DNA from: Minisyncoccota bacterium
Lineage (GTDB): Bacteria > Patescibacteriota > Minisyncoccia > Phycocordibacterales > UBA9973
Length of the DNA: 64,000 nucleotides
Reading direction: 5' to 3'
Assembly: GCA_041657885.1 (NCBI GenBank)
Contig: JBBABB010000001.1
Location: 65,094 to 129,093 of the forward strand
Within the stretch, counting starts at the first letter, position 1. Each line of letters opens with the position of its first letter. A model generated the notes under the pieces. The model saw only the letters and a program-made list of their open reading frames with translations, had not been told where the DNA came from and did not search any database. Shown piece by piece: positions 40,129 through 56,042 of the stretch. A program made the position numbers and the translations under genes.

Positions 40129-40458
40129 TCAGGAAAACAAATCAGCTGAACGAAATATCATGGAATCAATCTCTTCCAAATATTCCTGGTTTTCAGGATT
40201 AATCCTAAATTTACTTAAAAGAACATCGTGCTTTTTCTGCATTTCTTTTATCCCATAAAGGAAACAAAATGAAATGATTCGCCGATCTGGCTCTTCCGCT
40301 TCAAGAAATGAAAGCAAAGCTTTCTCACTCTCGCTATCTTTTTGCTCAAAGCACATTATTCCAATTTCATTAATGAGCATGCAACTTGGATAGGTAGAAT
40401 TCGGATTTTCAAGTAGCTCAAGAATTTGATCCAGGGTAAACTTCGTCTGTCTTAACAT
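40129..40458 (-). CDS. Hypothetical protein
   Basis: ORF only. Confidence 0.35.
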   Translation of the reverse strand: MLRQTKFTLDQILELLENPNSTYPSCMLINEIGIMCFEQKDSESEKALLSFLEAEEPDRRIISFCFLYGIKEMQKKHDVLLSKFRINPENQEYLEEIDSMIFRSADLFS

Positions 40459-40508
40459 GATTTCGAGGATTTAATGTTTAGAAATTTGAATTGAATTACC
40501 ATTTTTAC

Positions 40509-41063
40509 TTATAAGACTTTATACTCATACTCCTTAAGATAAAGACTGTCCAGGTATAGGGCAGTATTATTAAATATACCCTCGTACTTATTAGTATAGT
40601 GAGGAATAATCTTAATAGGCAAAATCCCCAACCCCTCGTATATGCCATCCGCACTTGGGCTATAGAAAAGTGTGCATAGTGCATTTGCACCCGCTGATTC
40701 ACCAGCTACAGTTTTTCCTTCTACGAGTAAATCTTTTAATCCATGGAACTTTTTGAAAACACCCATTAACTTTAGGGTATTTCCACCTTGAATATAGATA
40801 ACGTTTGATGATTTTACCTGTTCTGTAAAAGATTCTTTATTTGCAATTTCAAAAGACAAATTTTTAGAACCTTTCACTTTGTTAAATTCATCCATAACTC
40901 GTTCCGTGGTTTGAACTACTCTTTCAGGGTCTTTAGCAAAAGGTACAATTAGTACTTTGGAGTTGTCACCGACATCTTTTAATATCTCTGAGTAGAATAG
41001 AGTATTGTCTTCATTAGTATTACCTTTTTGAAAACCGCCATTAAGTATAAATTTTGATTTCAT
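40509..41063 (-). CDS. Peptidase S51 (dipeptidase E)-like class I glutamine amidotransferase-fold protein
   Basis: YIQGGNT..G..ESAGA pattern of the S51/DJ-1 superfamily. Confidence 0.55.
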   Translation of the reverse strand: MKSKFILNGGFQKGNTNEDNTLFYSEILKDVGDNSKVLIVPFAKDPERVVQTTERVMDEFNKVKGSKNLSFEIANKESFTEQVKSSNVIYIQGGNTLKLMGVFKKFHGLKDLLVEGKTVAGESAGANALCTLFYSPSADGIYEGLGILPIKIIPHYTNKYEGIFNNTALYLDSLYLKEYEYKVL

Positions 41064-41215
41064 CTTTTTTTAATTTAATTGTTAGAAATATATTTATTAG
41101 GTCTTCTTAATTCCCATAAAGAAACTAGGAGAACCTAATAAAAATTAACAATTAAATAAAATATCAAAGAACTACTATGGTTTATATAGTAGCATAATTA
41201 TAGAGTTATGTCAAT

Positions 41216-41242
41216 GCTCCGAACTTGGGAGGATGTTCGAAT
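41216..41242. repeat. Hairpin/mini-ORF element copy 2 (gctccgaacttgggaggATGTTCGAATGA)
   Basis: Exact match to the element core. A bidirectional terminator hairpin follows at 41,265-41,300. Confidence 0.6.
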
Positions 41243-41308
41243 GAGTATTATTAAGTAAATATAAAAGCCCATCAGTGAAGATGAGCTTCTACAGATGGGC
41301 TTAGTTTT

Positions 41309-41803
41309 TTATTCGTCCTGATTATAATAGTATCCAGGACATTGATATGCCTTATCACGCTGTTCACGAACACATCCCATACGATCATCACATGAATTAC
41401 ATAACACTTCTGGGACGGTAATAGTTCCCTTGCGAGTTTTAGTGGAGTAATAAACTTTTACTCTTACTAAATCTTTGCGTAATTCAGGTATGGGATATCC
41501 CTCCTCGATAAGTTGCCTAAAATAATTAAAGTCAACTTTTTTTGCTATAACATGTTCCTCTTTTTTTGCTTTTTCAACAAAAAATTCATCAGAAAGGTAT
41601 TTACTGTTTACTGAAAAAATAAGGTTCCATGATTGGCCACTTCTATCTTCAGCTTCAATAGAATGAATAATTACAGCAAAGTACTTTTCCTTTTCATTTT
41701 TGATGACTTGAAAAGGGACCAACCTTTTTTCGGTGCAAAGGCGTAAGCCATCAAACAATTCCTCTCTTGAGGGACCATTTGTAATTTCAATCGTTTTTTC
41801 CAT
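41309..41803 (-). CDS. Hypothetical protein with a C-terminal Cys cluster (CNSCDD..C..CPG)
   Basis: ORF only. Confidence 0.4.
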   Translation of the reverse strand: MEKTIEITNGPSREELFDGLRLCTEKRLVPFQVIKNEKEKYFAVIIHSIEAEDRSGQSWNLIFSVNSKYLSDEFFVEKAKKEEHVIAKKVDFNYFRQLIEEGYPIPELRKDLVRVKVYYSTKTRKGTITVPEVLCNSCDDRMGCVREQRDKAYQCPGYYYNQDE

Positions 41804-42056
41804 CGTACAATGAATTTAAAAAGAACTTTTTCCTTATACATTTTACAGAGGATAAAGATAACTCTGGAGCCATAAGGCAATCTTTCCGTACAGAAAGAAC
41901 TGCTTATATGATATCACAATAACTTGACATTGTCAAGCAGTTATGCTATACTATCCAGAGTAATAAGTTCTTTTTATAAACCAGAGGTAGATCATACGAA
42001 AACCAATGACTTTTGTCTTTGCTTGACCTGTCGTCTATCTCAAAAAACTCAAAATT

Positions 42057-42386
42057 ATGGTTGCTTTAACTGTTTTCGCTTTGTTCTTCGGTACCTTTAT
42101 TGGCTACTGTTGGGGAAATTCTAAAAGAGGAAAATTGGTAGAATATACCAATGAACTCCCTAATGGGTTTCTGAGAATCCTAAGTACTGATAAGACGTCT
42201 TCTGTCTTAGAAGAAGTTGATTACAAGAAAAGAAGATTCTTGGTTTCCACTGATGTTTTTGGAGGAAAGCCAATCAGACCAAAAGATGTCGTAAGAAAAA
42301 TCAAAAGCGACAGAGAAAGAAAAGATTTCGGAATCCCAGTATTGGGATATCCCCCTCTCATTAAAGTAGAGGAAGAAGATCTTTAA
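42057..42386 (+). CDS. Hypothetical protein with an N-terminal TM helix
   Basis: ORF only. Confidence 0.35.
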   Translation: MVALTVFALFFGTFIGYCWGNSKRGKLVEYTNELPNGFLRILSTDKTSSVLEEVDYKKRRFLVSTDVFGGKPIRPKDVVRKIKSDRERKDFGIPVLGYPPLIKVEEEDL

Positions 42387-42599
42387 AGAAATTTGCTGGT
42401 TTCTCTCCAGTGATTGGTAGTAGCCAAGAGAAAATATAACTCAAGACCCTTATCTTTACAGATGAGGGCTTGTTTATTTTTACCCCACACTCACTACCAC
42501 TATATATCCCCTATAAAGTTCACAACGTGCATATGTTCACAAAAACAAAAGGCCGTTTCCGATAAATCGGGCGTGCCTTACTATTTTAAAATAATACCT

Positions 42600-43013
42600 T
42601 CAGAATCTATCCTTGGTTATGAGTAACACAATAGAAACAATAGCGAGTAAAAAACCAAGTATTTTCTGAAAAGAAATTCCGCCTGCCATAATTGATTGAT
42701 ATACAGCAGGAATAGCTGTTTGTGCAATAAGCATGATCACAAACAATAAACCGACATTTTGTACTGTTGCTTTGGCGATAACACCATTAAAGAGCAATAG
42801 CCCAATTGCGCCAATAACTCCCGCGCTAATCGCAAATATCCAATGGGCCGATGATATTTCCATGGGTTGTGTTAATGAAAAAAGAAAAACACAGATTAGC
42901 ACTACAAAAGCAAAGACAAAAGAAGCTACGCTACCACTTAAACCGCTTCGGTTCATAAGTAGTGGCCAAATGCCAAATAGCATTCCAGCAATAACGATTT
43001 TTATTACATTCAT
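42600..43013 (-). CDS. Small integral membrane protein (4 TM helices)
   Basis: Hydrophobicity pattern only. Confidence 0.45.
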   Translation of the reverse strand: MNVIKIVIAGMLFGIWPLLMNRSGLSGSVASFVFAFVVLICVFLFSLTQPMEISSAHWIFAISAGVIGAIGLLLFNGVIAKATVQNVGLLFVIMLIAQTAIPAVYQSIMAGGISFQKILGFLLAIVSIVLLITKDRF

Positions 43014-43279
43014 ATTGTTGAGTTTTAATAGTTTGTATTTTTTTCTTTCACATTACTTCTAAGAGCTTGTAAAGTCAATAGGAATAAAAAAACCGCCTTT
43101 CAAGTATTTCTCCTGAAAGACGGTTAGTCATTGCTACTAAAGAGTATGCTTAATAGACAATGCGTTCGCCTCCCTACGTCGGAAAAGATAAAAACGACGA
43201 GTTCATAGGTTCAGCATCCTACCACCAAACCCTGACATCTTTCTACTTTGGGTCTCTTTAATAGAAAAGAAGTTAGTTT

Positions 43280-43720
43280 TTAATAAATTGTAAATGACCC
43301 ACAAACAGCTTCACCTGAGACATCATTGTGGTTAAGAAATCGCATGTGCTCCCCATCGTGGAATATATATTCCGTATAACTCGAGGGGGATTCAAGAAAA
43401 TGTGTGGGATATTTCCCTGGTCCTCCACAATTTGCAGTCACAACTTTCCACGTTTTCCCGTACTTGTCTCGTAATTCAGAACCTTCTTGTAATTTCTGAA
43501 ACTCTGTTTGACTAATAATACAGCCAGTTTGATTATTACTTGAAGTGACCTGAATTTTGCAAACTGTCTCATCTTCATAGTGAAAAACAAGTTCATGTTT
43601 TTCACTATCGTATGTTATTGCAGTTATTCTTTGGCTTTTAAAGGCGCACATTCTCAAGAGGGCATCACCAACAAATTCGTTGTATTCCTTGCCGAAAGGA
43701 ATTTCTACTTGTGTTATCAT
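43280..43720 (-). CDS. Hypothetical protein, driven by an inverted copy of the shared promoter module
   Basis: ORF. A promoter-module copy lies upstream at 43,780-43,817 on the minus strand. Confidence 0.4.
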   Translation of the reverse strand: MITQVEIPFGKEYNEFVGDALLRMCAFKSQRITAITYDSEKHELVFHYEDETVCKIQVTSSNNQTGCIISQTEFQKLQEGSELRDKYGKTWKVVTANCGGPGKYPTHFLESPSSYTEYIFHDGEHMRFLNHNDVSGEAVCGSFTIY

Positions 43721-43779
43721 CTTATTTATTTTTAAAGGTTTTTACTATTTTCTTTACATTACTACTTTCGCAATGAATT

Positions 43780-43817
43780 ATCAATCTAGGTTCGAACTTC
43801 TACTAAGGTAGGAAAAA
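43780..43817 (-). promoter_or_regulatory. Shared promoter module, copy 1 (reverse complement of tttttcctaccttagtagaagttcgaacctagattgat)
   Basis: Matches copies at 53,338-53,381, 56,177-56,222 and 59,961-60,005. Confidence 0.45.
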
Positions 43818-44258
43818 TAACCATTATAAAATATGGTTCAAAATTTTGCTCCACGTAGTATACCAGGTTAGAACCTATTTTCAAGCTAATCCAGGATATG
43901 TTTTTATACCAAAGCTATCCCTAGAGTCAGTACAGATAGCATAGTATTTTCAGTTCTATCCCGTACAGTCCCGTTACGTACATACCAACAGTAGCACCCT
44001 TGCAACTTTTGACATAGGCGTGGCTTGTTTTGTCAGCCCGATAATTTTTAATACTACACAGGGCTGTATATAATTCTGTTAGCTTCTGGATAACAGTATC
44101 GCTAATTTCAAACAGTATCATTATCGCAACTGTCCTAAAGGGGTGTACCCTTGTCTTTCTTGTACCCATTTTTATGAAAAACTGAAAATAGGTGGTGGGT
44201 ATATTACAGCCGAGTTTTTCGCGCGGCGGGGGGACACCCTCTCCCAGTTGAGGTTTTT

Positions 44259-45527
44259 CTAGGAATCTTTTTTGGGCTCTGGGTTTACTTCGTCTTCTTT
44301 TTTCTTTGTGCCCATTGGAGGCAAAGGCTCCCTTTTTACTTTTGGGAATTTTTTTGGAAAGTGTTTAATACGTAACTTTTCGTGCTTGTCATAAATTGTG
44401 TGTGAAGAACCCCAGTTATCATCTGGTCTTAAGAAACTCTCTCCGTATTCAAACCAAGAGCCATTCTTTGCGCTCCTTATATCAACAAAGATATGGGGAC
44501 ATTGAGCTAGTGGGTCACCGAGATTATCTATCTCAATAATTCTCTCATATGGGATAACCGCTTCGGTTTCAAAGTATGCCCTGTTGGCCTTATCAATCTT
44601 TTGAGAAAACATATATCCTCGATAATGAACGTCGGTTTCATCCTTGGGGTTATTCCAGTAGTCGTCGTGAATGAGTGCCATATTATATTCATTGCTATAG
44701 TCCCATTTCAAAAGCTCCCCAGTTTGAGGGTCAACTTCCTTGTAGGCGTGATATTTGCGAGTAAGAAGTCGAATGCCGTTGTGGTCGTGTCCAACAAACT
44801 GATACTGTTTCCATCTCGGCTTCTTTCTGAAATCCTCTATCTTTTCGCCCATTTTTATATATGGATAACTTTCGGCGTTTATGTCTCTTACCAGTACGGT
44901 AGTGTAACTCTTTTGACCAATTGCACCCAAGTACTTAACGGTCTTCCTCTTCATTGCTAGTCGAGCCGATATTTCTGACTTTATCGTGCGACGACGTATG
45001 ATTAATGAGATACCAAAGTAGGCAAAGAGCAGATGGTCATTCTTCGGAAGAACGAGCATATCTTCCAAATCAGCTCTGCCCCACAAGTAAAATTCTTGCA
45101 CCCCTTTTTGGCTTAATTTCTCTCGAAACAAGTCTCGTGTCTGTTTTGAAAACTCACAAGGTGCAGCAAAGAGTACGCCGTAAGGTACGTCTGCGCCTTT
45201 TGGTATCATTTCTTCAAGATATTTTTCTAACTTGGCAGGAGTAATTGTTTTCTCACGTTTGCACTGTATCTGCCAAAGCCTATCTGGACTGGTTTTCTTT
45301 GCGCTATCTTTCTCTTCCTGTTCATCATCTTCACTTTCTGACTCTTGGTCACCCACAATTTCAAAACCACGAGCATCATAACCATCGTCTGTGCCAAGAC
45401 GTCCTGTCGGCTCCAACAAGCGCCAAGTGCGAAAATCATAAGCTAATTGGCGCACCAAATCTTCAAACCTATGTGGCTCAAGGTCTTGGAAAGGGAGAGG
45501 GTTTAATGTTCGGGTTGTTTTTGCCAT
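44259..45527 (-). CDS. Mrr-like PD-(D/E)xK nuclease-fold protein (N-terminal about 140 aa) with a 280-aa C-terminal region of unknown fold. Partner of the OLD nuclease
   Basis: GTDDGYDARG ... WQIQCKREK resembles the Mrr catalytic-domain D..(E/Q)xK arrangement. Its start sits 1 nt after the OLD stop (TGAaATG). Confidence 0.55.
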   Translation of the reverse strand: MAKTTRTLNPLPFQDLEPHRFEDLVRQLAYDFRTWRLLEPTGRLGTDDGYDARGFEIVGDQESESEDDEQEEKDSAKKTSPDRLWQIQCKREKTITPAKLEKYLEEMIPKGADVPYGVLFAAPCEFSKQTRDLFREKLSQKGVQEFYLWGRADLEDMLVLPKNDHLLFAYFGISLIIRRRTIKSEISARLAMKRKTVKYLGAIGQKSYTTVLVRDINAESYPYIKMGEKIEDFRKKPRWKQYQFVGHDHNGIRLLTRKYHAYKEVDPQTGELLKWDYSNEYNMALIHDDYWNNPKDETDVHYRGYMFSQKIDKANRAYFETEAVIPYERIIEIDNLGDPLAQCPHIFVDIRSAKNGSWFEYGESFLRPDDNWGSSHTIYDKHEKLRIKHFPKKFPKVKREPLPPMGTKKKEDEVNPEPKKDS

Positions 45528-45528
45528 T

Positions 45529-47379
45529 TCAGGTTATTTTCTTTTTTATCAACTTAACAATGTCATAAAGCCCCTTCAATTCTCCTTTTAGTATTGAGGC
45601 ATCTATGTTTAGCTTTTTGAAAGAATCAGCAATTTTAACAGAGAGATTGTGCTTTACGTCATCGGTAAAACTAATACCCTCGGCTTCATAGTGTTTTACA
45701 ACCTGTTGCATTACTGGAGTTTTGAGACTAAGTATTTTTGAAAAAGATGATTTATACTGCCTGCCAATCTCGTTAGCAGCATCTTCTACAAGTTTGAGCG
45801 GTAATAAATCTTCCATCGTTTCTGCGCCACTTTTTACAGCAACACTTAAAATCTCTTTATTTACAAGTACTTTCTTCTTTTTGTTGGCCACGATTGCGTT
45901 TTTCCCTTCGGTGTCGTTGTCGAACAATGCTATCACATCTAAGCCGTTGTTTTTTAACATATTAGCGTAGTATAGGATTTTCGATGCACCGTGAGCTGGA
46001 ATAAACACTGATGAGTTGAGATTTATTGAAAACTTGAAACTTTTGAGTTTGTTTATGAACTCAAGCAATACCATTTTATCGAGTAAGCCCTCAACAAGGA
46101 TATTTTTCTCTGCAATAGGAGCGACATCAGATAATGCAAAACCAAGAGAGTTTCGCAAAAGTTCGTCTTGAAAAATATCTTTTTTACTTAATCTATTCAC
46201 TATATCAGTATCGTCGTCTGGTCTTCGAATAAGGCGCACACGCTCTGGATATTCTTTGCTAATCATAAAAGGCGTGTGTGTCGAATAAACTATTTGATTA
46301 TGTTCCGATAGTTCTTCCAGTCGTTCTAGCAAATCTTTTTGTCCACCAGGGTGTAGCTTATCGCCTGGCTGGTCAAAAAGAATGATATTATTTTTTAGCG
46401 TTTGTAATTTCGAGCGAAAATTTATTAGAAACGTGAGATACCACTGCAAACCTTCACTACGCTTTTTGGGGTCAATCTGATAACCTTTTTCCTCAACCAG
46501 AATTTCTATAAATGCCTCTTTGTAATGCATCGTTAATTTTATATTCTTTCTCTGTTTCCAGGTATTATTTATAACCTTTGTTACTTTACGAGAAATGTCA
46601 GTAAGAAAGTTGTGTATATAAACGCTGTCTCTATTAGTAAAGTGTGAAGCAATTTTATCTTCTTCAATACCTCCTAAGCGAAAAAGATTTACAACGGATG
46701 AATACTGTTCTTTGATTACGTGAAAAGAAATCGGTACATCTTTGGGAATGTAATACTCATCTGAATATTTCCACAGAAAAACACTTGGAAGAGCATCAAA
46801 AATTATTTCTGATATCTTTTTGTATAGCAGGTCATCTCGTTCTTTTTTTTCTACCTTCTGCAACTTTTTATCTCGGAAGAGCTTTGTATTTTTATGATAT
46901 GTTATTGGCGAAGATGTCCAGTTATTAGGCGCGAGCGATATTGTATTCCCATTCTTTGTCTGTAATTTTTGCTCTACTTCTGAAATGTTTTTATAAATCT
47001 CAACATATTGAAAACCCTGTCCGTTTGGCGTGTCGAGGTAGGTTTCGTCCTCATCGTTACCTTCACGCGTTATTGTGATTCGGTTGTGTTTTTCAAAAAA
47101 ACGAGCGTAACGTTTAAGTTTATCTAGAAGCTCTTCCGACAGCTCAAACTCGTAAATGACATTTGGGAGATAGTTTTTGCGTGAGTATTCGGAGTTTATT
47201 TTTGTGTCAGACTCCGTAAGTTCTTTGTCGGCATCAAGAAACTCAATAGCCTCAAGTAAATTAGTCTTGCCACTCTCATTTGCTCCTACAAGAACAGTTA
47301 TTTTTTCGTCAACATCTAAGCTGTCATCATTGATGGTTCTAAAACTCTGGCATCGGATTGATTTTAATGTTAGTTGCAT
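45529..47379 (-). CDS. OLD-family nuclease: N-terminal ABC/AAA15-type ATPase fused to a C-terminal TOPRIM domain
   Basis: Walker A (VLVGANESGKTNLLEAIEFL), an ABC signature region with Walker B (ILFDQPGDKLHP), and a C-terminal TOPRIM (ILVEGLLDK..IALFDNDTEGKN). Confidence 0.8.
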   Translation of the reverse strand: MQLTLKSIRCQSFRTINDDSLDVDEKITVLVGANESGKTNLLEAIEFLDADKELTESDTKINSEYSRKNYLPNVIYEFELSEELLDKLKRYARFFEKHNRITITREGNDEDETYLDTPNGQGFQYVEIYKNISEVEQKLQTKNGNTISLAPNNWTSSPITYHKNTKLFRDKKLQKVEKKERDDLLYKKISEIIFDALPSVFLWKYSDEYYIPKDVPISFHVIKEQYSSVVNLFRLGGIEEDKIASHFTNRDSVYIHNFLTDISRKVTKVINNTWKQRKNIKLTMHYKEAFIEILVEEKGYQIDPKKRSEGLQWYLTFLINFRSKLQTLKNNIILFDQPGDKLHPGGQKDLLERLEELSEHNQIVYSTHTPFMISKEYPERVRLIRRPDDDTDIVNRLSKKDIFQDELLRNSLGFALSDVAPIAEKNILVEGLLDKMVLLEFINKLKSFKFSINLNSSVFIPAHGASKILYYANMLKNNGLDVIALFDNDTEGKNAIVANKKKKVLVNKEILSVAVKSGAETMEDLLPLKLVEDAANEIGRQYKSSFSKILSLKTPVMQQVVKHYEAEGISFTDDVKHNLSVKIADSFKKLNIDASILKGELKGLYDIVKLIKKKIT

Positions 47380-47410
47380 ATCATTATCATTGTTATTTTA
47401 TTACGACTCA

Positions 47411-47593
47411 CTACTTATGTTTGGATTTTTCTGCGAGTCTTCCGCGCTTGAGGAAATCTTTTATATCCTTATCAGTGAATCGCCACTTGCCCTGTTTCGA
47501 CCCGCTTAATTTTTTATCTTTCAAATAGCGGAAGATTTGCCGTTCAGAACATTTTAGAAGTTTTGCCACTTCTTCGATGGTGTATATTTTCAT
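47411..47593 (-). CDS. Excisionase/HTH_17-family DNA-binding protein, about 60 aa. The first gene of the OLD operon
   Basis: MKIYTIEEVAKLLKCSERQIFRYLKDKKL..GKWRFTDKDIKDFL matches the Xis/MerR-type winged HTH. It lies 31 nt upstream of the OLD start. Confidence 0.6.
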   Translation of the reverse strand: MKIYTIEEVAKLLKCSERQIFRYLKDKKLSGSKQGKWRFTDKDIKDFLKRGRLAEKSKHK

Positions 47594-47918
47594 AAATTTA
47601 ATTGTATCTCTTTTGCGCAAATTGGTCAACTTTTGTCATACTGAATTTTTAACTGTGGATAACGTTTTTGTCTTTGCATAACTCTAAATAACACGACATA
47701 ACGCAACTCCTTATAATTTTCATTGACTAAAAACTCTGATAAATTATAATTAAATTAGCTCTTGAAAAATTAAAGCAAAAAGCAACAAATTGTTTGAGGT
47801 ACAAGTCGCTGGGGCTCTTCTAGAGGAGACTAGAGATATTTCTTAAATAGTTTAGCGCAGTAGTATCTCTGCCCATAAGGTAAAGAGGAACTACCATTTC
47901 AGAATCCAGTTTTATTTT

Positions 47919-48275
47919 GTGGATTTTGAAATGGGAGCTATCTCTTACAACAAAGAACCGCAAAATAAAAAGTGCGATTTTTTGCTTTTTAATGGCGGTA
48001 ATCTACTGGGTTTGACGAAGTCCGTTGTTGACTTCGTGGGTCGCCATCCCAGTGGAACCTGCGAGGTCAAGAGCGGACTTTTTATGTTATCGCAAAAAGC
48101 GCTCGAAGAATTTAAGACTATCTGGAGCAAAGAATTCGGAGAAGAAATCTCCGACGAATTTGCGACTGAGCAAGCAATAAATTTGCTAGTGCTTTTTAAT
48201 GCGACGTATAAGTCCATTAAAAACGAATGGATAAAACAATACGACGATGAAAAATCAAAAAATACCACCATATAA
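47919..48275 (+). CDS. Hypothetical protein (element cargo)
   Basis: ORF only. Confidence 0.35.
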   Translation: MDFEMGAISYNKEPQNKKCDFLLFNGGNLLGLTKSVVDFVGRHPSGTCEVKSGLFMLSQKALEEFKTIWSKEFGEEISDEFATEQAINLLVLFNATYKSIKNEWIKQYDDEKSKNTTI

Positions 48276-49077
48276 CACAATTCCGCACTATATTGTGTCG
48301 GATTATCGTAGCGGGAAATTGAATATCAACCAGCTTCGCTTGCTTCAGTGGATACGTGCGATAGGGACACCATACGGGATTGCCATTACGAGCTTGGTTG
48401 ATTTGAACAACGATGTCTTTCCCGACTTGGAGTTGAAAATTAACACAATCAACTCATACCTTATCAAACTCCGTCAGGAGCAATATATCTTTTTTGAACC
48501 ACGACAGGGCAAAATAGGAACTTTTGAAATACATCTCAATCATTGGTTGACACCTAAGATGGGCTATAAAACGCTTGATAAGTTCTTCCCCGAACCAAAA
48601 CGATGGGTAGGCGCGGACGGAGAACCAATAGGGGTCAATTCTTTTCCACAAGCAAATCCATCAGAAGTCAGTCAGAAGTTGGGGGAGGAAAATCAGAAGT
48701 TGGAAGATATAAAAAACAAGTTAGCAAAACAATTTTCTGGCTACACACCAGAAGACAAAATCAGAAGTCCCCACAACGAACACGATACCGAACATCACAT
48801 TGAAAATCACGATACGTTAATAAAATCTTCTTTTAAGGGAACGTTGGTGAGAGAATTCAATCCGAAGAACTACGAAGAACAGCGATGTAAAGAAATAGTT
48901 TCAGAACTCGGGGATAAGTTTATGAATTCAATCTTAAGTGTCTTGCGAAAAGACGGATTCCGACGTATAGAACAAGCGTGGGGTATTTTTCGAGAGCATA
49001 GAGAGGAAGGTAAAAAAATGGATAATCCCGCAGGATATTTTCAGGGCATTATTAAGAAACTACGAGAAAACCGATGA
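48247..49077 (+). CDS. Hypothetical protein, possibly a winged-helix replication-initiator-like protein
   Basis: Weak resemblance only (QLRLLQWIRAIGTPYGIAITSLVDL). Confidence 0.3.
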   Translation: MKNQKIPPYNTIPHYIVSDYRSGKLNINQLRLLQWIRAIGTPYGIAITSLVDLNNDVFPDLELKINTINSYLIKLRQEQYIFFEPRQGKIGTFEIHLNHWLTPKMGYKTLDKFFPEPKRWVGADGEPIGVNSFPQANPSEVSQKLGEENQKLEDIKNKLAKQFSGYTPEDKIRSPHNEHDTEHHIENHDTLIKSSFKGTLVREFNPKNYEEQRCKEIVSELGDKFMNSILSVLRKDGFRRIEQAWGIFREHREEGKKMDNPAGYFQGIIKKLRENR

Positions 49078-49292
49078 AAACGACACATTCACAATTTAGC
49101 ACTTTTACACTTGTCAGGGATTGTCAGGGTGCTATAATGATAGCGTACCCCAATATGTTTGCTTTTCAGTGGAAAGCGGCACCTTGCTGCCAATTGCTGA
49201 AAAGCGTATTGGGGTACCAGCGGGTGTCGCTTTGCGTTTTGTATAAATTATTTATTAAAAGGTCGCGAGTAAGATTAAATTAGCCAAAATTT

Positions 49293-49847
49293 ATGAAGAA
49301 AATTATTTCAATCGTTTCTATCATTGTAATTATTACCGTTCTTTCGTTTGCATTACCAAGTCAAACTTACGCAGTGTGGTGGAATCCATTTTCGTGGTCT
49401 TCTGAAAACAAACAAGCGGAAGAACAAGAACAGCCGCCAACAACTGACCAGAATACCGAGGAAACGGAGAAGCAAAACACGATTGCTCCATTTAATAATA
49501 TTCCATCGTCTGATGCAGAGACAATCGAGGCGTTGAAAATAGAAGTCGCAACACTCAAGACCAGTTTGGATAATTTATATAAAGCTCATAACAGCCTAGT
49601 GGAAGACCACAATGTTCTACTTAAATACGTAAATGCAACGGTTTCGCCCAGCAAGAGTGTTAGTGTAATAACCGATAATTCTAGTCTTGAGAAAAAAGTT
49701 ACCGATTTAGAAAATAAACTCTACAATGTTTGTCGACGGACATTCAGTTCCCTGGGTGGGCTTGGTAGAGACAACTGTCCGTCGTCTGGACTTCTTGGAA
49801 CGGAAGCTCTTGAGAGTAGAATCAAAAAACTTGAAGGAGGATATTAA
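49293..49847 (+). CDS. Hypothetical secreted coiled-coil protein
   Basis: Signal peptide (MKKIISIVSIIVIITVLSFALPSQTYA) and heptad-like repeats. Confidence 0.4.
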   Translation: MKKIISIVSIIVIITVLSFALPSQTYAVWWNPFSWSSENKQAEEQEQPPTTDQNTEETEKQNTIAPFNNIPSSDAETIEALKIEVATLKTSLDNLYKAHNSLVEDHNVLLKYVNATVSPSKSVSVITDNSSLEKKVTDLENKLYNVCRRTFSSLGGLGRDNCPSSGLLGTEALESRIKKLEGGY

Positions 49848-49864
49848 AATTAGCAAACTACTAT

Positions 49865-50749
49865 ATGAACCAATTTTTAATCTTAATAGGAATCCTTGTA
49901 GGATTAGGGATAATTGTCTCTGTATTGGAAAGTAAAAATAAATATATAAAACGGACTGGTGAAATCGTGTTTGGAACGATAGCGACTGTGATTTTAAGTG
50001 GTATGGTGACTTTGCTTGTTATGGGGGCGCTTATTTTAACCCTTGGGGCATTCGTTTGGATTTTGGCTTTCGTATTTGATTTGCTAAATTTGCCTCCTGG
50101 ATTCGAGGATGGGGTATTTTCTCTGCTCCGCCCTGCTTTTTTCTGGGCGAACGATGACTATATTAAGCCGACTCTCTTCGTTCTGTGGGTAATTATCCTT
50201 TTCGTTGGTTTCAAGGGAGATTGGGTGAAAAAGAAACTCGCTTGGGTACTATATCGGAAAAGGGCGACACCCGAACCAGAAAAATCACAGCAAGAATTAC
50301 CAAAAATGAAAAAGGAGGAAACTGTGTTGGATTATTTTCATCGCATACAATCAATAAAAAATAAAGATAGTAAAGACCGAGAGAAAAAACCACGGAAGGA
50401 GCCATCTTCATCACCAAAGAGATTATTGATTCCCTTGAGCAACTCGGCAGAGGAAGCTTTGGCGGCGGTAAAAGCTCATTTGTTAGACAACCATAAAACA
50501 AAGGGGAACGAAGAAGAATTTGAAGTCCAGGTACGGCTACCACGGGAGACGTATGAACCACAGGAGAAACAGCAGCAGTCGTCTTCGAATCTGTTATCGG
50601 AGAGTTCGGACGAAGAAATAGAATTAGTAGAAGGAGATTCGAAAATCAAAGCGTTTCAATTAGGCTCTCCATTTCAAAAGACCAAAGAGGAAAAAGAACT
50701 ACCCACAAAAAATAATAATCAACCATCACAAAACAATGAAAAAAATTGA
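49865..50749 (+). CDS. Hypothetical membrane protein with a charged low-complexity C-terminal tail
   Basis: Four TM helices followed by a Lys/Glu/Ser-rich region. Confidence 0.4.
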   Translation: MNQFLILIGILVGLGIIVSVLESKNKYIKRTGEIVFGTIATVILSGMVTLLVMGALILTLGAFVWILAFVFDLLNLPPGFEDGVFSLLRPAFFWANDDYIKPTLFVLWVIILFVGFKGDWVKKKLAWVLYRKRATPEPEKSQQELPKMKKEETVLDYFHRIQSIKNKDSKDREKKPRKEPSSSPKRLLIPLSNSAEEALAAVKAHLLDNHKTKGNEEEFEVQVRLPRETYEPQEKQQQSSSNLLSESSDEEIELVEGDSKIKAFQLGSPFQKTKEEKELPTKNNNQPSQNNEKN

Positions 50750-52364
50750 AGACAAAAAAATTAAATACTTTTTGTATGCACGAAAATCGAGTGAGTCGGA
50801 AGAGCGCCAAGCGGCATCGATTGAAGACCAAATCAAAGAATTAACGAGAATTGCGAAAGATTTTAATTTGGAGATTATAGAAATATTTACAGAGTCGCAG
50901 TCAGCTAAAGCGCCTGGTCGCACAGTGTTCAACGAAATGATTAGACGTCTCTATGCTGGAGAAGCAAATGGCGTTTTGTGTTGGAAGCTGGATAGACTTG
51001 CTAGAAATTTTATAGATGGCGGTGCCATCATTGACCTGCTTCAAAGCGGAAAGATGCAAAGTATCCGAACCCACGAGAAATTTTATCTTCCATCAGACAA
51101 TGTGCTAATGATGGCGATGGAGTTTGGAATGGCAAATCAATTTGTTCGAGACCTTTCGGTGAATGTGAAGCGCGGTCTTAAAAACAAAGCAGAGAAGGGT
51201 TGGCTACCTGGCATTGCTCCAATTGGATATCAAAGCACTCCTGACCGAGAAAAAGGATTCAAGGAAATAGAAATTGACCCTGAGCGCTTTCCGCTTGTTC
51301 GTCGAATCTTTGATTTAATGCTCACGGGAAATTATACTGCTCCGCAGATATGGAAGATGACAAAAGAATGGAATCTAACAACCATCAAGCGAAAGAAAAT
51401 CGGCGGTCATCATCTCTCAAAGAGTGGAATCTACGCTCTTCTCGCAAATCCTTTCTATTATGGACGCTTCGAATATCCTGTCGGTAGCGGAAATTGGATA
51501 CAAGGAAAACACAAGCCGATGATTGAGGAAGAAGAATTTAATCATATTCAGAGAATGCTAGGAAAGAAAGGTAAGCCGTGTCCCAAGACTCACCTTTTCG
51601 CTTTTACAGGAATGATGCGTTGCGGTTTTTGTGGAAGTTCTATTACTGCTGAAACAAAAACGAAGAGACAGAAAAATGGAAATGTTCACGAATACATTTA
51701 TTATCATTGCACTAAAAGAAAAAATGAAGCTTGTGTAGAAAAATCTGTGGAAGTAAAAAACCTTAATGCGCAAATAGATGAACTTTTATCTCGCATCACT
51801 ATTTCCGAGGGGTTCAAGGAATGGGCAATAAAATATCTACACGAAATAAGAGAAAGCGAAGCTGAAAGCCAGGAAACAATTCTTAAAAACAAAAATAAGG
51901 AACTCGAGTCGGTAAATACCCATTTATCTAAGCTCATACTCGACTACACTTCTGCTGAAAATACTGATGGAGGTATTATGTCTGCTGACGAACTCAAAGC
52001 AGTAAAGGGAGGCTTGCAGAAGCGTAAAATTGCCCTTGAGGAAGAATTAACGAAAGTAAATATAGAAAAGGACAAGTGGTTAGAATTGAGCGAGAAAACA
52101 TTTAATTTTGCAAGATACGCTCGTAGTTGGTTTGAACAAGGCAATAACGATACCAAAAAATCTATACTAAACTGTCTTGGTTCGAACCTCATCATAAAAG
52201 ACCAAAAACTCAATGTTTTACTGCATCCTTTCTTCTTGAGTATCTTTGAAGAGAAAGATAAGGTGGAAGCAAATTTTGCTTCTGCTCGAACCTCCAAAAA
52301 CCTTTTATCTGAAAGACAAAAAGTTAATTTAGACCCAAAATACAAAACATTGCTCCGTGGGTAG
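50736..52364 (+). CDS. Large serine recombinase (resolvase-type catalytic domain, recombinase domain, zinc ribbon, C-terminal coiled coil)
   Basis: Catalytic region (YARKSSESEERQAASIEDQ), recombinase domain, and Zn ribbon (CGFCGSS..YYHCTKRK). The stop codon overlaps the 3' end of the tRNA-Asn on the opposite strand. Confidence 0.9.
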   Translation: MKKIEDKKIKYFLYARKSSESEERQAASIEDQIKELTRIAKDFNLEIIEIFTESQSAKAPGRTVFNEMIRRLYAGEANGVLCWKLDRLARNFIDGGAIIDLLQSGKMQSIRTHEKFYLPSDNVLMMAMEFGMANQFVRDLSVNVKRGLKNKAEKGWLPGIAPIGYQSTPDREKGFKEIEIDPERFPLVRRIFDLMLTGNYTAPQIWKMTKEWNLTTIKRKKIGGHHLSKSGIYALLANPFYYGRFEYPVGSGNWIQGKHKPMIEEEEFNHIQRMLGKKGKPCPKTHLFAFTGMMRCGFCGSSITAETKTKRQKNGNVHEYIYYHCTKRKNEACVEKSVEVKNLNAQIDELLSRITISEGFKEWAIKYLHEIRESEAESQETILKNKNKELESVNTHLSKLILDYTSAENTDGGIMSADELKAVKGGLQKRKIALEEELTKVNIEKDKWLELSEKTFNFARYARSWFEQGNNDTKKSILNCLGSNLIIKDQKLNVLLHPFFLSIFEEKDKVEANFASARTSKNLLSERQKVNLDPKYKTLLRG

Positions 52365-52720
52365 GGATCGAACCTACGACCAATCGCTTACACTTTATCT
52401 CCTATTACTAGAAGTGTGGACTATATCATCTCCATGTTCATAATTTTATGAATTTAGGAGCAAGGCGCTTCCCATCCGATTATTACCGGAAAGTACTCCC
52501 CGAAAGGATAGTCTCTACACCTTCCTCGATTTTGTGTCGAGGCTTGGCTCGGGATTACCCTAGGCTAAATCAATTATAAATAATTGATCGCCCGAACTTT
52601 TGTTTTCAAAAGTTTTTAGGGGCTTCCCCGAATTCACCTTGTTTTTCATCCTACTTTTCAATAGAAAGCTGCGTAAATTTTCTTTCCACAGGCGATCGCT
52701 CTACCGCTGAGCTACCACGG
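52353..52720 (-). tRNA. tRNA-Asn (anticodon GTT) interrupted in the anticodon loop by a 296-nt group I intron
   Basis: Exon 1 is 52,687-52,720 (TCCGTGGTAGCTCAGCGGTAGAGCGATCGCCTGT). Exon 2 is 52,353-52,390 (TAAGCGATTGGTCGTAGGTTCGATCCCTACCCACGGAG). The joined anticodon loop is CTGTTAA. U1-A72 and discriminator G are as in E. coli tRNA-Asn. A tRNA-Thr alternative (splice after CT) is not fully excluded. Confidence 0.75.
52391..52686 (-). ncRNA. Group I intron of the cyanobacterial tRNA-Leu intron type (about 300 nt, no ORF)
   Basis: P7 halves AGACTA and TAGTC (ggtgtagagacta ... gatatagtcc). P3/P4 block aatcccgagccaagcc. Exon CTGT pairs with internal guide GCAG with a U-G at the 5' splice site. 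The intron ends in G. Confidence 0.75.
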
Positions 52721-52928
52721 AATGTATCTACTTATAAAGTAGATGTGGTTATAATATCAAAAAAATATCCAAAAAGCAAAGTAAAATGATAATATAAATA
52801 TGGAAAGATAACCTACCCACAAAAATTGCTTTTTTTTATAAATAGTTGTATAGTTAGAACATTAACAATAAGCCTATATATTAATTATATGTTTTGTTGA
52901 TATTATTAATAATAAAAAAATAAAAAAT

Positions 52929-53189
52929 ATGTTACAAGAAAAAATTCCTTCAATATTTACTCTTACTCCGGAGTATCAAAGTGCTAATTTAGAATTTACA
53001 GAAGCTATGGAAAATCCAAAGCTTGATTTAGGTGAAAAACTTAAAAAGCTTGAGAATCTTGCAGATCAAATGGGAACGAATCCTCAGAATATTAAACATT
53101 TTAATGATACTATTTTGGAACGCTGGGTTAAAATTAAAAATCCAGAGCTTTATAAAGCTTACCAAAATACTGTATTAGAAGCTGCATAA
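52929..53189 (+). CDS. Hypothetical small protein
   Basis: ORF only. Confidence 0.3.
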   Translation: MLQEKIPSIFTLTPEYQSANLEFTEAMENPKLDLGEKLKKLENLADQMGTNPQNIKHFNDTILERWVKIKNPELYKAYQNTVLEAA

Positions 53190-53265
53190 ACTAAATTAAA
53201 AAACTCACAAGAACCATTCTTGCTAGGTTCAGAAAAGTAGGCAGACCAAAGAATGGTGGCTGACC

Positions 53266-53310
53266 CCAATTCCAATTCCCAATTCCCAATTCTTCCAATT
53301 CTTGATTCTT
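53266..53310. repeat. Heptanucleotide simple-sequence repeat (CCAATTC/CAATTCC, about 4 clean units grading into degenerate ones) just upstream of a promoter module
   Basis: ccaattc caattcc caattcc caattct tccaatt cttgatt read directly. Confidence 0.5.
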
Positions 53311-53337
53311 GGAGCCTGATTTCAAGCCTTATTTTAC

Positions 53338-53381
53338 AAGGCTTATTTTTCCTGCCTTAGTAGAAGTTCGAACCTATTGAC
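53338..53381 (+). promoter_or_regulatory. Shared promoter module, copy 2 (aaggcttatttttcctgccttagtagaagttcgaacctattgac), ending in a -35 TTGACT
   Basis: Matches the other three copies. A -10-like taatgt box lies 17 nt downstream. Drives the ORF at 53,440. Confidence 0.45.
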
Positions 53382-53439
53382 TTTACAAACTGAAAAATGT
53401 AATGTAAAGAAAAATATTCACATATAAATAATTATTAAA

Positions 53440-53907
53440 ATGGAAGAAATTCAGAGCTTTAGACCTTGTGAAATAAATGTTGAAAAACCGACATTAATTC
53501 GCAAAGACCAAAATGGTATTCAGGTTTGGTTACAATGGTTTGGTGAAGCAAGAGAAGAAAATTTGTCTCATAAACAATTTCTCTTTCCAATCAATGCTAA
53601 CATTCAAGACTTTTTCTTCCAGCCAGAAAGTTTTGAAATAATAATGGTTGGTCCTGTAAAAAATTGGCCAGAAAAAAAGATTGTAAATTATTTGGCCGAA
53701 AAACTAGGAGGTGAAAATAAAATAATTATTTATTTCATTTCCTCTAAGTTTGGGGTTGATGATGGTAATGGTGGAACTATTCCTGTCGCGGGGGTTTTGC
53801 CACTGAACATTACTTTGATAGATCCAAATTATGGGATAATAAATCCTAAAGAATTTTTTAAAGACTCAGTTCGCCTTGAAGCTATCAGAAAATTTCAGGA
53901 AAATTAA
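53440..53907 (+). CDS. Hypothetical protein
   Basis: ORF only. Confidence 0.4.
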   Translation: MEEIQSFRPCEINVEKPTLIRKDQNGIQVWLQWFGEAREENLSHKQFLFPINANIQDFFFQPESFEIIMVGPVKNWPEKKIVNYLAEKLGGENKIIIYFISSKFGVDDGNGGTIPVAGVLPLNITLIDPNYGIINPKEFFKDSVRLEAIRKFQEN

Positions 53908-54012
53908 ATTGCCTGCCAAAAGAAGACCCTCCTTCTCTCGGCGGGTTTTTTTTGTGAATATGTGCACATTGTGAACTTCCTAGAAGGGTATGTCTACTTA
54001 GTTAGGATAGTT

Positions 54013-54039
54013 ATTCGAACATCCTCCCAAGTTCGGAGC
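54013..54039. repeat. Hairpin/mini-ORF element copy 3 (minus orientation; reverse complement reads gctccgaacttgggaggATGTTCGAATAA)
   Basis: Exact match to the element core. Confidence 0.6.
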
Positions 54040-54180
54040 TTGACTTTTTAATTAAAATATGCTATCATCATAAAGGTAGTAGTTCTTTGGAATTGGGATT
54101 TTGTGTTGTATTAGTTGGATTATTTTTGTTTCTAAGGTTTAAAGATGGAAATAATTCAATTAATTTAAACTAAATCTTTT

Positions 54181-54585
54181 ATGAAAACAAAAGTAATTGA
54201 CCTCAAGCCAGTGTTTTTAATGAGTAATCAGGATTTTATTAAAAGCATACAAAAATGTTTTGACATCCTTAATGTTGTCTTAAAGATTAAATCTTTGGTT
54301 TCCCATAATCCTCTTTTTATAAAAGAAAAAAATGGAAAAATATATGTCGGCTACAAACCTCTTTCAAAAGGAAAGACCCACTTTTTTTCTAATGAGTTTA
54401 TCAATCCGGAATATGATCTGGCCACTAGAATCGCTATTATACAATTGGCAATTTTTGAGGAATGCAAAGAATATGACTGTTATAAGGAAGTTCCAATGCA
54501 TGGCGCTCCCGAAGAAGGAACAGACACGTTCTTCAAATTTGTTCTCAATAACACTGAATATACATATAAACTCTGGTATGCTTAG
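54181..54585 (+). CDS. Hypothetical protein
   Basis: ORF only. Confidence 0.4.
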   Translation: MKTKVIDLKPVFLMSNQDFIKSIQKCFDILNVVLKIKSLVSHNPLFIKEKNGKIYVGYKPLSKGKTHFFSNEFINPEYDLATRIAIIQLAIFEECKEYDCYKEVPMHGAPEEGTDTFFKFVLNNTEYTYKLWYA

Positions 54586-54691
54586 TGTTTGGTAATTAAA
54601 TTGTTAAACCCACTCTTTTTGATTGATCGGGTTTTCTTTTTATCTAAGTATAGTAAGTTACAAGATAAGATAAAAATGATAGAATGGATTT

Positions 54692-55120
54692 ATGAAAGAT
54701 GATGCATTGTTTTGTATAGGGCAAAAGGCATTTATTGAAAAAGATGGAAAAGTATTAGTTCTAAATGATCCTACTGAGGGGTTAGATTTTCCTGGTGGAA
54801 AAATACAAGAAGGAGAAGCTGTAGATGGTGACAGGACTAGTTTGATAAAATCTTTAAAAAGGGAAGTAAAAGAAGAAACTAGCTTGGAGATAGAAGTTAA
54901 TGATCCTTTTGCTGTTTGGTATCATGAGTTTAGTGATAAAGGTCATAGAAACTATGGAAAAGTAGTTTATCTTGTAGGATTTAAATGTAAATATGTTTCA
55001 GGAGAGATAAAATTAAGTAGTGAGCATGATAATTTTAAGTGGGTAAATAAAAATAATTACAAAGATGTTGATGATGATAGTGATTATTTTGATATATTAG
55101 AAAAATATTTTACTAAATAA
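54692..55120 (+). CDS. NUDIX hydrolase
   Basis: NUDIX box GGKIQEGEAVDGDRTSLIKSLKREVKEETSL (Gx5Ex7REUxEExGU). Confidence 0.75.
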   Translation: MKDDALFCIGQKAFIEKDGKVLVLNDPTEGLDFPGGKIQEGEAVDGDRTSLIKSLKREVKEETSLEIEVNDPFAVWYHEFSDKGHRNYGKVVYLVGFKCKYVSGEIKLSSEHDNFKWVNKNNYKDVDDDSDYFDILEKYFTK

Positions 55121-55382
55121 AATATGGTTATAGACATAGAGCTTACTTTGAATAGGTTTGGGTTTGGAAAAATTTCTGAAAATAAATTTCAATTCTTATT
55201 TTTTAGATTTTCTAAATGGAAAATTCCAAATAAATACTCTATTTCTTTTGAAATAAATTGGCGAAAAAAAGAATAAATTTCCCCAAGAACTTTACTTACA
55301 GCTAGTATAATAACTAGCTTTTTTGTTTGACATTTTTGGTTTTTTGATGTAAAATCTCTTTAAATATTAAAAAACAAAAAAA

Positions 55383-56042
55383 ATGAAAAAATCGGTCAAA
55401 AAGGCCAGTTTTTTCTCTGGCCAGGTTCATAGACTTCTGAATAAAATTTTAAAAGGAATGAAAAGAAGAAAAGAAATTTATTCTTTTACTTCTGTCTTAT
55501 CCCAGTTGGGAGCAAAAAATCTATTGGCTTCTTTCAGGGTTTTTACTTCTGAAAATAGGTTTTTTGAGATTCTATTTAAGGAAGCAATTACTTTCAGCCC
55601 ATCACACGGAGCTGAAGTAGGGGAATGTTATGGATGGAAAGTGGTGATTTTGTTAGGCAAGAATTATACTGCCAAAAAAATCAATTATATTATATTGAAT
55701 GAAATTAAAAGTAGAAGAGTTGGGCAAAAGGTGGAAGAATCATGCCGTAAAGCTATTCAATACCTTATTGATCACGATGAAGAAGTAGGGTCCATTATCT
55801 TCTCTATAAAGATTTCAACCGATACAGAAGACAGGGACTGGAAAATTGACCTTTTTTTGGAAACACAAAAAGGTAATGTTCCGCTCCAAATAAAATCTAG
55901 TCTTATGGGGCAAGTTTCTCATAAGATTAACGACCATAGAGTTACATCACTAGTTTTTAAGGAGAAGATGGAAACTAGTGAATTGAAGGATAAGATTCTT
56001 TTGATTTGCAAATCTTATCCAAAAATTATTGAACATTTGTAA
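55383..56042 (+). CDS. Hypothetical protein
   Basis: ORF only. Confidence 0.4.
   Translation: MKKSVKKASFFSGQVHRLLNKILKGMKRRKEIYSFTSVLSQLGAKNLLASFRVFTSENRFFEILFKEAITFSPSHGAEVGECYGWKVVILLGKNYTAKKINYIILNEIKSRRVGQKVEESCRKAIQYLIDHDEEVGSIIFSIKISTDTEDRDWKIDLFLETQKGNVPLQIKSSLMGQVSHKINDHRVTSLVFKEKMETSELKDKILLICKSYPKIIEHL

Follow-up and report, generated by a model that had tools for sequence, protein, structure and literature searches.

The DNA analysed here is a window of 64,000 nucleotides from a Candidatus Paceibacterota genome (Minisyncoccota bacterium, GenBank contig JBBABB010000001.1, positions 65,094 to 129,093). It contains a tRNA-Asn(GUU) gene that is interrupted in the anticodon loop by a group I intron and overlapped at its 3′ end by a gene for a large serine recombinase, which raises the question of whether one mobile element or two have settled in it. 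We conclude, with a probability of about 0.9, that two unrelated selfish elements occupy this single gene: an intron of 297 nt (52391..52687, minus strand) and an integrated island of 12,333 bp (40025..52351, counting one copy of its core). The intron is ordinary, and a serine integrase targeting a tRNA gene is the less expected part.

The whole split gene spans positions 52721..52353 of the minus strand. Its 5′ exon of 34 nt (52688..52721, minus strand; TCCGTGG TA GCTC AGCGGTA GAGC G ATCGC CTGT, thus ending in CCTGT) provides one acceptor strand, the D arm, the anticodon stem and loop nucleotides 32-35 (CUGU). The 3′ exon of 38 nt (52353..52390, minus strand; TAAGCG...CCACGGAG, or TAA GCGAT TGGTC GTAGG TTCGATC CCTAC CCACGGA G) carries loop nucleotides 36-38 (UAA), the anticodon stem, the variable loop, the T arm, the acceptor strand and the discriminator G, and CCA is not encoded. 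When joined in silico, the exons formed a canonical cloverleaf of 72 nt that ARAGORN called as tRNA-Asn(gtt), in agreement with the first-pass annotation of this DNA, made by a model from the letters alone. That annotation had placed the end of the gene correctly at 52353, while its other limit, 52720, left out the first acceptor T at 52721, and the intron length of 296 nt that it gave is corrected here to 297 nt (52687..52391). The interrupted gene was missed by ARAGORN in a default run, no other tRNA-Asn was found within the 64-kb window, and the 25-nt 3′ end of the gene occurs once in the window, with 0 occurrences expected by chance.

The dinucleotide GT/TG is duplicated at both junctions (CCT-GT-GGAAAG...AAAG-TG-TAAGCG), so that two registers satisfy the pattern of a U before the 5′ splice site and a G at the intron end, namely Asn (CUGU/...G/UAA) and Thr (CU/...G/UGUAA). 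The second register corresponds to a tRNA-Thr(UGU) gene with an intron after U33 (CCT/GT...AAAG/TGTAAG), and ARAGORN in intron mode (-i) indeed called tRNA-Thr(tgt) here and placed a 297-nt intron at position 32-33. As judged from sequence, four independent lines (guide, homologues, tRNA body and intron-less alleles) nevertheless identify the gene as tRNA-Asn(GUU) with the intron after anticodon nucleotide 35, the second of the anticodon, as the first-pass annotation had placed it. No guide pairs with GCCU, while the pairing of GCAG with CUGU is found in 29/29 homologues with an invariant U·G. The Asn register gives U-1 and a terminal G in all 38 homologous Asn-type loci, whereas the Thr register is impossible in 13 of these 38 and yields CGU in two others. 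The tRNA bodies of the Asn loci, the present one included, are all of the Asn type, with U1-A72 and discriminator G73. Finally, in a metagenome sample chosen solely by the last 22 nt of the tRNA-Asn (119 genes with an identical 3′ end), 94 intron-less tRNA-Asn genes read CTGTTAA, and the relative L203 lacks exactly 52687..52391, its exons being contiguous at the junction 52688/52390. The Thr label is therefore a register artefact, ruled out by the P1 pairing, the homologues and the intron-less alleles, and we grant a tRNA-Thr(UGU) gene next to no probability. In practice, tRNA finders either miss such genes (ARAGORN by default) or mislabel them as Thr (intron mode), and the genomes that carry them can seem to lack tRNA-Asn; an exon-based test combined with a P1-based test settles the register.

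The identity of the intervening sequence was supported by the Rfam model Intron_gpI (RF00028), the search that the first-pass annotation had proposed as a check, with a match at 52398..52746 of the minus strand (63.3 bits, gathering score 50, E 1e-13, covering the full model, 1-253). The ends of this match were rejected as intron boundaries: the model assigns P1 to a hairpin upstream of the tRNA (52722-52746), and in its alignment the 5′ exon and the true P1-P2 become an insertion. The intron contains no open reading frame (ORF) and could be drawn manually as a complete P1-P9 group I fold with standard pairs only. The internal guide sequence GCAG (52669..52672, minus strand) pairs with exon nucleotides C32-U35 to form P1 (CUGUG/CGCAG), with a U35·G wobble at the 5′ splice site, and the terminal intron G lies at 52391; this is the P1 and the final G that had been read from the letters alone. 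P2 is formed by UCUAUU-GAAA-AGUAGG, P3 by CAAGGUG/CGCCUUG, P4 by UCGGGG/UCCCGA, and P7 by G·AGACUA/UAGUCC with a bulged A; the remaining helices comprise P5 with a branched P5a/P5b, P6/P6a and P8/P8a, and P9 has a GUAA loop followed by the tail AUAAAGUG. The three motifs that had been quoted as group I hallmarks correspond to P4′/P6, J6/7-P7 and P7′ of this core. Two extra hairpins, P7.1, closed by a UUCG loop, and P7.2, whose loop contains UAAUAAU, lie between P7 and P3′ (52468..52508, minus strand), as the manual fold and comparison with published seed alignments indicated. The P5 extension, a three-way junction with the P5a and P5b hairpins (52563..52614, minus strand), is specific to the window, its columns being gaps in the other 28 sequences of the alignment described next, and it accounts for the larger size of the intron compared to its relatives (214-260 nt).

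The fold was tested on a MAFFT alignment of 29 homologous Asn introns from different phyla. Pairs were formed in 86.3% of the alignment cells, against 36-44% after sliding the 3′ partners by one to three columns; the covariation score was 0.352, against 0.05-0.11 after sliding; and the observed values were reached by 0/500 shuffles. The core helices P3-P8, including the P3/P7 pseudoknot, are all present, with 100% of cells paired in P3, P6 and P7, 99.4% in P4 and 97.4% in P8. Two-sided changes occurred in 6/6 pairs of P2, 3/7 of P3, 4/6 of P4, 6/6 of P6a and 3/4 of P8, and P7 was invariant. The four exon-guide pairs of P1, including U35·G, were invariant in 29/29 sequences, and the fifth pair, involving intron nucleotide 1, covaried (AU 15, GC 5, CG 4, GU 2, UA 1). 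The group I assignment thus holds both by Rfam score and by covariation. In the folded precursor, exon C32-U35 would be paired with the intron guide GCAG; an external guanosine would attack after U35, the terminal G (52391) would then occupy the same site, and the exons would be ligated to give CUGUUAA.

A different account of the same gene is that it is a dead copy, in which the intron no longer splices and Asn decoding relies on another locus. Splicing of this copy is deduced from its sequence, only part of the genome was covered, and the tRNA lost its own terminator on insertion of the island, all of which this account could invoke. Yet the exons form a perfect cloverleaf, the catalytic core is intact with an Rfam score above threshold, and the interrupted gene is 99% conserved in strain L190. 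Compensatory changes also accompany the persistence of this intron type in dozens of lineages, a sign that the fold is under selection. Furthermore, the window holds no other tRNA-Asn, and Paceibacterota genomes are small and usually carry their tRNA genes as single copies. We regard a dead copy as very unlikely and retain a probably functional, interrupted tRNA-Asn gene.

The intron is a member of an already catalogued and widespread class. Williams (2020; bioRxiv 10.1101/2020.01.27.920355) extended the four classical interrupted bacterial tRNAs to 21 types, including 'Asn.4Ug', and the window intron falls under its definition (host tRNA-Asn(GUU), insertion after the fourth anticodon-loop nucleotide, U-1 and a terminal G). 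The rarity that the first-pass annotation implied for an Asn intron is thus out of date, the type being common in public genomes. A search with a pattern for the intron subfamily retrieved at least 120 genome records, and the counts of genome loci given here rest on these 120 matches. Among the matches listed, ARAGORN labelled 24 as Asn and 13 as 'Thr(tgt)', while the exon-based test recognised 48-60 Asn genes. The hosts among them include Patescibacteria (Paceibacterota, Saccharibacteria, Portnoybacteria and Nomurabacteria), Acidobacteriota, Elusimicrobia, Binatia and Eubacteriales, and the cyanobacteria Phormidium, Hormoscilla and Floridaenema. Identity to 37 further members of the class ranged from 49 to 76%, the closest among the matches listed being L047 (76%). 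In the metagenome sample defined above, the intron was present in 22 of the 119 tRNA-Asn genes (plus two truncated copies), about 20%. Such presence/absence polymorphism among near-identical tRNA genes offers a natural system for studying intron gain and loss. Separately, an HNH-like ORF with a CANCHREIH motif was observed inside the P1 loop of the Asn introns of two relatives, L125 (11850-12275, minus strand) and L079; the Pfam HNH match of the L125 ORF (E 0.011) did not reach the threshold. The window intron, which has no ORF, may thus descend from a mobile form. Lui et al. (2021) noted that group I introns in tRNAs of such genomes hinder their detection.

The second element is marked by the large serine recombinase gene (50736..52364, plus strand, 542 aa; NCBI MFA5773158.1, 'recombinase family protein'), which is convergent with the tRNA gene. 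Pfam recognised the domains Resolvase (PF00239, 7e-19), Recombinase (PF07508, 4e-10) and Zn_ribbon_recom (PF13408, 1e-8), which bears out the family named in the first-pass annotation, and the catalytic residues R16 and S18 are invariant in six diverse homologues. The overlap with the tRNA is 12 nt (52353-52364), the extent that had been estimated: the last three codons and the stop are antisense to tRNA nucleotides 62-73, the stop TAG (52362-52364) being the antisense of the T-stem CTA, and the final codons TTG CTC CGT GGG TAG lie opposite tRNA ...CTACCCACGGAG-CAA. Up to the island junction the recombinase ORF lacks a stop codon, and it is antisense tRNA sequence that closes it; the C-terminus of the protein consequently differs between the integrated form (542 aa) and the predicted excised form (553 aa).

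The limits of the island were fixed by strain L190 (JGI metagenome), in which positions 1-3086 correspond to window 55424..52352 at 99.2% identity, the same intron included, and positions 3081-12367 correspond to window 40024..30779 at 90%. This empty site shows that the element integrated at the tRNA 3′ end. The island is bounded by two copies of a 6-bp core, GCTCCG, one on the right at the island/tRNA junction (52352..52357), where it is the antisense of tRNA nucleotides 69-73 and the first trailer base, and one on the left at the island/chromosome junction (40019..40024). With the core in this position, the whole tRNA, with all of its 73 nucleotides, stays host-derived, and the original terminator hairpin of the tRNA is found just left of the left core, at about 39980-40018. 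Integration would have proceeded by recombination within the core, CGGAGC in the tRNA sense, displacing only the 3′ trailer and the terminator to the far end of the island, 12.3 kb away. Read in the tRNA sense, attB is GGTTCGATCCCTACCCA-CGGAGC-CAAAACTAAAAACCTCTCTG..., its right arm being the tRNA terminator hairpin; attR consists of the left arm of attB followed by CGGAGC-AATGTTTTGTATTTTGGGTC; and attL is TTATTCGAACATCCTCCCAAGTT-CGGAGC-CAAAACTAAAAACC... The reconstructed attP joins window 52300-52357 to 40025-40080, with the junction ...AAAACATTGCTCCGAACTTGGGAGG... The island thus represents a nucleotide-exact case of a serine integrase at a tRNA 3′ end, with attB, attL, attR and a reconstructed attP.

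The island-side arm of the left junction (40025..40045) consists of 13 nt followed by GTTCGAAT, a degenerate copy of the tRNA T-loop/acceptor. In this arm (attL) the TTCGA motif lies 13 nt from the core, compared to 8 nt in the tRNA, that is, 5 bp further out. One half-site would probably be recognised through this T-loop TTCGA, whose distance from the core is 8 nt in attB and 13 nt in attP. The half-sites of attP reportedly differ from those of attB by a 5-bp outward shift of the motif bound by the zinc-ribbon domain, and by analogy the displacement seen here would fit that difference. A second copy of the 25-nt tRNA 3′ end was found neither at up to three mismatches nor by short BLAST, with nothing beyond 6 bp, and inverted or direct repeats between the island ends gave best scores of 16-17, below the shuffled mean of 17.9. 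Two other positions had been considered for the left boundary, 42550-42576 (breaks between the Logan contigs L123/L121) and about 43.9 kb (a G+C step); both were superseded by L190, which places it at 40024/40025. Public assemblies of this population break at 42550-42576, 52379-52386 and 52698 (Logan contigs L123/L121/L124), and the ENA contig k141_114272 stops within the tRNA, at 52386; where a break falls in a tRNA exon, the likely cause is that co-occurring species share exon sequences.

It could be argued that the recombinase is merely a conserved neighbour or a local DNA invertase rather than the integrase of an island, since more distant relatives (L203, L225 and others) have the tRNA segment the other way round, so that an inversion did take place here, and an excised circular form was not observed. 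Against this stand the presence or absence of exactly 12,333 bp with a 6-bp repeat between near-identical strains, the varying cargo beside homologous recombinases (an OLD nuclease here, an M78 peptidase and a helix-turn-helix protein in L125 and L126), and the three-domain architecture of a large serine recombinase, which is typical of integrases. We consider this explanation highly improbable, and the recombinase is treated below as the integrase of the island.

Whether the intron arrived with the island, the recombinase element supplying both intron and 3′ exon on integration, was initially suggested by a first genome sample in which 9/9 recombinase-adjacent loci had the intron; that sample, however, had been selected by the intron pattern. 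When genes were instead selected by the tRNA 3′ end, 17/48 intron-less and 4/12 interrupted tRNA-Asn genes had a recombinase downstream (35% without and 33% with the intron; Fisher p = 1.0). The junction core at tRNA nucleotides 69-73 is 35 nt away from the intron, L190 has the same intron and no island, and L126 presents the reverse arrangement, an intron-less tRNA-Asn beside a recombinase. In addition, the C-terminal tails of recombinase homologues, described below, end at the TAA of an uninterrupted loop in 20 cases and read into the intron in seven. Carriage of the intron by the island is ruled out by the empty-site strain, the tails and the 3′-end sample, and its probability is negligible. 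Because the recombinase target stops short of the anticodon loop, the intron and the island come and go independently.

Several points weigh against two independent elements at a working tRNA gene, or blur parts of that picture. On the side of the intron, P7.2, P8a and parts of P9 were only 44-74% paired on the MAFFT alignment, probably through misalignment of hairpins of variable length, and a P10 between the 3′ exon UAAG and an intron UUUA near the guide is possible in the window and not evidently conserved by eye. What is established is the fold, its covariation and the exact boundaries, from which we infer splicing, just as the activity of the recombinase is deduced from its gene. The comparison covers 64 kb, and a second, intron-less tRNA-Asn may exist elsewhere in the genome. 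On the side of the island, the left flank of L190 is only 90% identical (99.2% on the right), so the strains are not isogenic, and the 2-bp crossover is placed only to within the 6-bp core. Finally, a junction-like site at 43.85 kb, described further below, implies that the history of the island is more complex than a single insertion.

The position of the recombinase gene recurs in related loci. A homologue (22-33% identity) converged on a tRNA 3′ end at nine of the 120 genome loci listed, and all nine were tRNA-Asn genes with the recombinase in the same reading frame relative to the tRNA. A protein search returned more than 6,700 recombinase homologues at E < 1e-30, and the C-terminal tails were analysed in the best 120, of which 63 ended in translated antisense tRNA (for example, ...LRGQDSNLRPIG). 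Codon 13 of the tail is the antisense of tRNA nucleotides 35-37, which gives a TAA stop if the loop is uninterrupted and TAC ACN (Tyr-Thr) if an Asn intron is present; the informative tails are the 20 and seven mentioned above. At the DNA level, L126 is intron-less and L125 carries the intron, and the tails of both are as predicted. Recombinase tails in databases therefore report the state of the neighbouring tRNA-Asn, with ...PIG indicating a stop at the loop TAA and ...PIGYT... continuation into an intron. The tails of the homologues P0064, P0073, P0086, P0091, P0104, P0108 and P0111 were observed to resemble antisense tRNAs with long variable arms (for example, ...RRGWDSNPRSLAGCRISSAVE), and to judge from these tails some subclades may target tRNA-Ser or tRNA-Leu instead of tRNA-Asn.

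Two further features accompany the recombinases. Three islands that otherwise differ all conserve, upstream of the recombinase, a gene for a small protein (68-114 aa) without family match (window 47931-48275, plus strand; L125 9084-9341; L126 5637-5843), which may be a regulator or a directionality factor. The 3′ coding region of the recombinase contains a DNA motif, T(T/C)CGAAC(C), at a distance of about 60 nt from the end of the tRNA (window 52270-52295), and the motif occurs at the equivalent position in L059, L013, L066, L044, L058 and L125. It is read in two frames, as Ala-Arg-Thr-Ser in the subfamily of the window and as Phe-Glu-Pro in the others, and its conservation despite this suggests that the DNA or the RNA itself is constrained there, beyond a minimal attachment site.

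Taken together, these data suggest, tentatively and with somewhat more doubt than confidence on our part, a very large and apparently undescribed clade of serine integrases, its homologues numbering over 6,700 at E < 1e-30, for which tRNA 3′ ends serve as attB, mostly tRNA-Asn with some class II-like tails, and which share an acceptor-stem core CGGAGC, a TTCGA half-site motif and a reading frame closed by antisense tRNA. A description of serine integrases at tRNA genes was not found in the literature searched, and large island databases may list such cases; a serine integrase with a tRNA target is accordingly a credible lead and not an established novelty. If the proposal holds, the clade would be at odds with the published view that tRNA genes are targeted by tyrosine integrases alone and would comprise serine integrases whose natural target exists in many bacteria. 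If the class is uncharacterised, it would widen the known target range of serine integrases and offer enzymes with a conserved, ubiquitous landing site. The island matters more than the intron in this respect, the value of the latter being mainly practical.

Regarding its content, the island carries a gene for an OLD-family ATPase-TOPRIM nuclease of 616 aa (45529..47379, minus strand; Pfam AAA_15 and OLD-like_TOPRIM, PADLOC 'Old' E 1.5e-31) that is translationally coupled to a gene for a 422-aa protein with no Pfam or PADLOC match (44259..45527, minus strand); the two are possibly an undescribed two-gene defence pair. The G+C content is raised at 43-52 kb (0.39-0.40 to the right of the 43.85-kb site, about 0.33 to the left), and at this step lies the internal second junction-like site (43848..43879), composed of a core-like GCTCCA, 13 nt and GTTAGAAC. 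The far side of this site matches the sequence directly downstream of the tRNA-Asn in L177 and L244. The island is probably a composite of an 8.5-kb recombinase element and a 3.8-kb segment mobilised with it.

In the more distant relatives L203, L225, L177, L158 and L145, the tRNA-Asn follows the conserved 27-40 kb block but is turned around, its 5′ side facing that block, and the short tRNA-bearing segment appears to have been inverted in the lineage of the window and L190 (window 40019-52800 compared). The flanks of L203, the intron-less relative, are 94-95% identical, and this relative also lacks window 52.8-59.98 kb. Around the tRNA, repeated intergenic modules 80-84% alike were observed at 43787-43853, 53310-53414 and 56151-56254, as well as a pair at 42511-42555 and 53939-53983. 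Each has a hairpin, a GTTCGAAC palindrome and a TTGAC-type promoter. The modules precede small genes to either side of the tRNA, and terminator-like modules, also matching, lie downstream. Elsewhere in the window, the tRNA-Lys(CTT) gene (23123-23196) is accompanied by two direct copies of its ~19-nt 3′ end, TTCCCTCACGGGGCACAA, at about 23350-23368 and 23511-23529, and by an inverted copy near 23232-23278; these copies look like remnants of repeated integration at this tRNA. A 47-nt block in the same region (23449-23495) is 94-100% identical to the sequence just upstream of the tRNA-Asn in L047, L197, L225 and L158. The 16S rRNA gene (24245-25832, 1,588 nt, with insertions compared to the model) is followed by the RNase P RNA gene (26431-26770) and not by 23S rRNA, and the score of the RNase P RNA, 107.6 bits, lies only a little above the gathering score of 100. 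Lui et al. (2021) described both features, rRNA genes that are unlinked and RNase P RNA that is hard to detect, in genomes of the candidate phyla radiation.

When compared to known tRNA introns, the window intron is closest in design to the seed Pam37.Asn.4Ug of Williams (2020). Both interrupt the same tRNA at the same point (CUGU/...g/UAA, with U-1 and a terminal G), share the core blocks GGUGAAUUC, AGAGACUA, AGCGCC and GAUGAKAUAGUCC, carry extra structure between P7 and P3′, and end in AUAA(A)GUG (auaagug in the seed). The window intron, about 20 nt longer at 297 nt, has two P7-P3′ hairpins where the seed has one, together with the branched P5 extension. Extra hairpins at this place are common to the Williams seeds Asn.4Ug, Phe.2Ug, Lys.2Ug and Leu.1Ug and to the window intron. 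The classical IC3 tRNA introns, i.e., those of cyanobacterial and plastid tRNA-Leu(UAA), Azoarcus tRNA-Ile(CAU), tRNA-Arg(CCU) and tRNA-fMet, likewise occupy the anticodon loop, are small and ORF-less, draw P1 from anticodon-loop nucleotides and have near-identical P4/P6/P7 core sequences, whereas the window intron is found in another tRNA and at another position (nucleotides 35/36). The match to the cyanobacterial tRNA-Leu intron proposed in the first-pass annotation therefore stands for the core, which resembles IC3, and fails for the two hairpins, which none of the IC3 examples in the Williams seed alignment has. The core sequences match IC3 tRNA introns, yet the 41-nt P7.1/P7.2-like insert is present in the window intron. 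A core without additional helices between P7 and P3′ is said to be the criterion for IC3.

As for the island, the overlap of recombinase and tRNA had been taken as the usual signature of integration at a tRNA 3′ end. An integrated element is indeed present, with its empty site in L190, but that signature belongs to tyrosine integrases with a duplicated tRNA fragment, and here we found a serine recombinase, a 6-bp repeat and a tRNA body that is entirely host-derived. Like the tyrosine-integrase islands of Islander (Hudson, Lau & Williams 2015, PMC4383910), the window island sits at a tRNA 3′ end with its integrase adjoining the tRNA, preserves tRNA function and includes a defence gene in its cargo. 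In contrast to them, it has no duplicated tRNA fragment, and hence no distal direct repeat, beyond the 6 bp and the degenerate T-loop-like arm, and the island ORFs that were scanned include a single recombinase, which belongs to the serine and not to the tyrosine family. With the large serine integrases of phiC31, Bxb1, TP901-1 and A118, on the other hand, it shares the Resolvase-Recombinase-zinc ribbon architecture with conserved catalytic Ser and Arg, short attachment sites with few identical bases and no long direct repeat, and a recombinase gene at the edge of the element. It differs from these in that its target is a tRNA 3′ end, while theirs is a protein-coding gene, and in that its recombinase ORF crosses the junction and ends in antisense tRNA.

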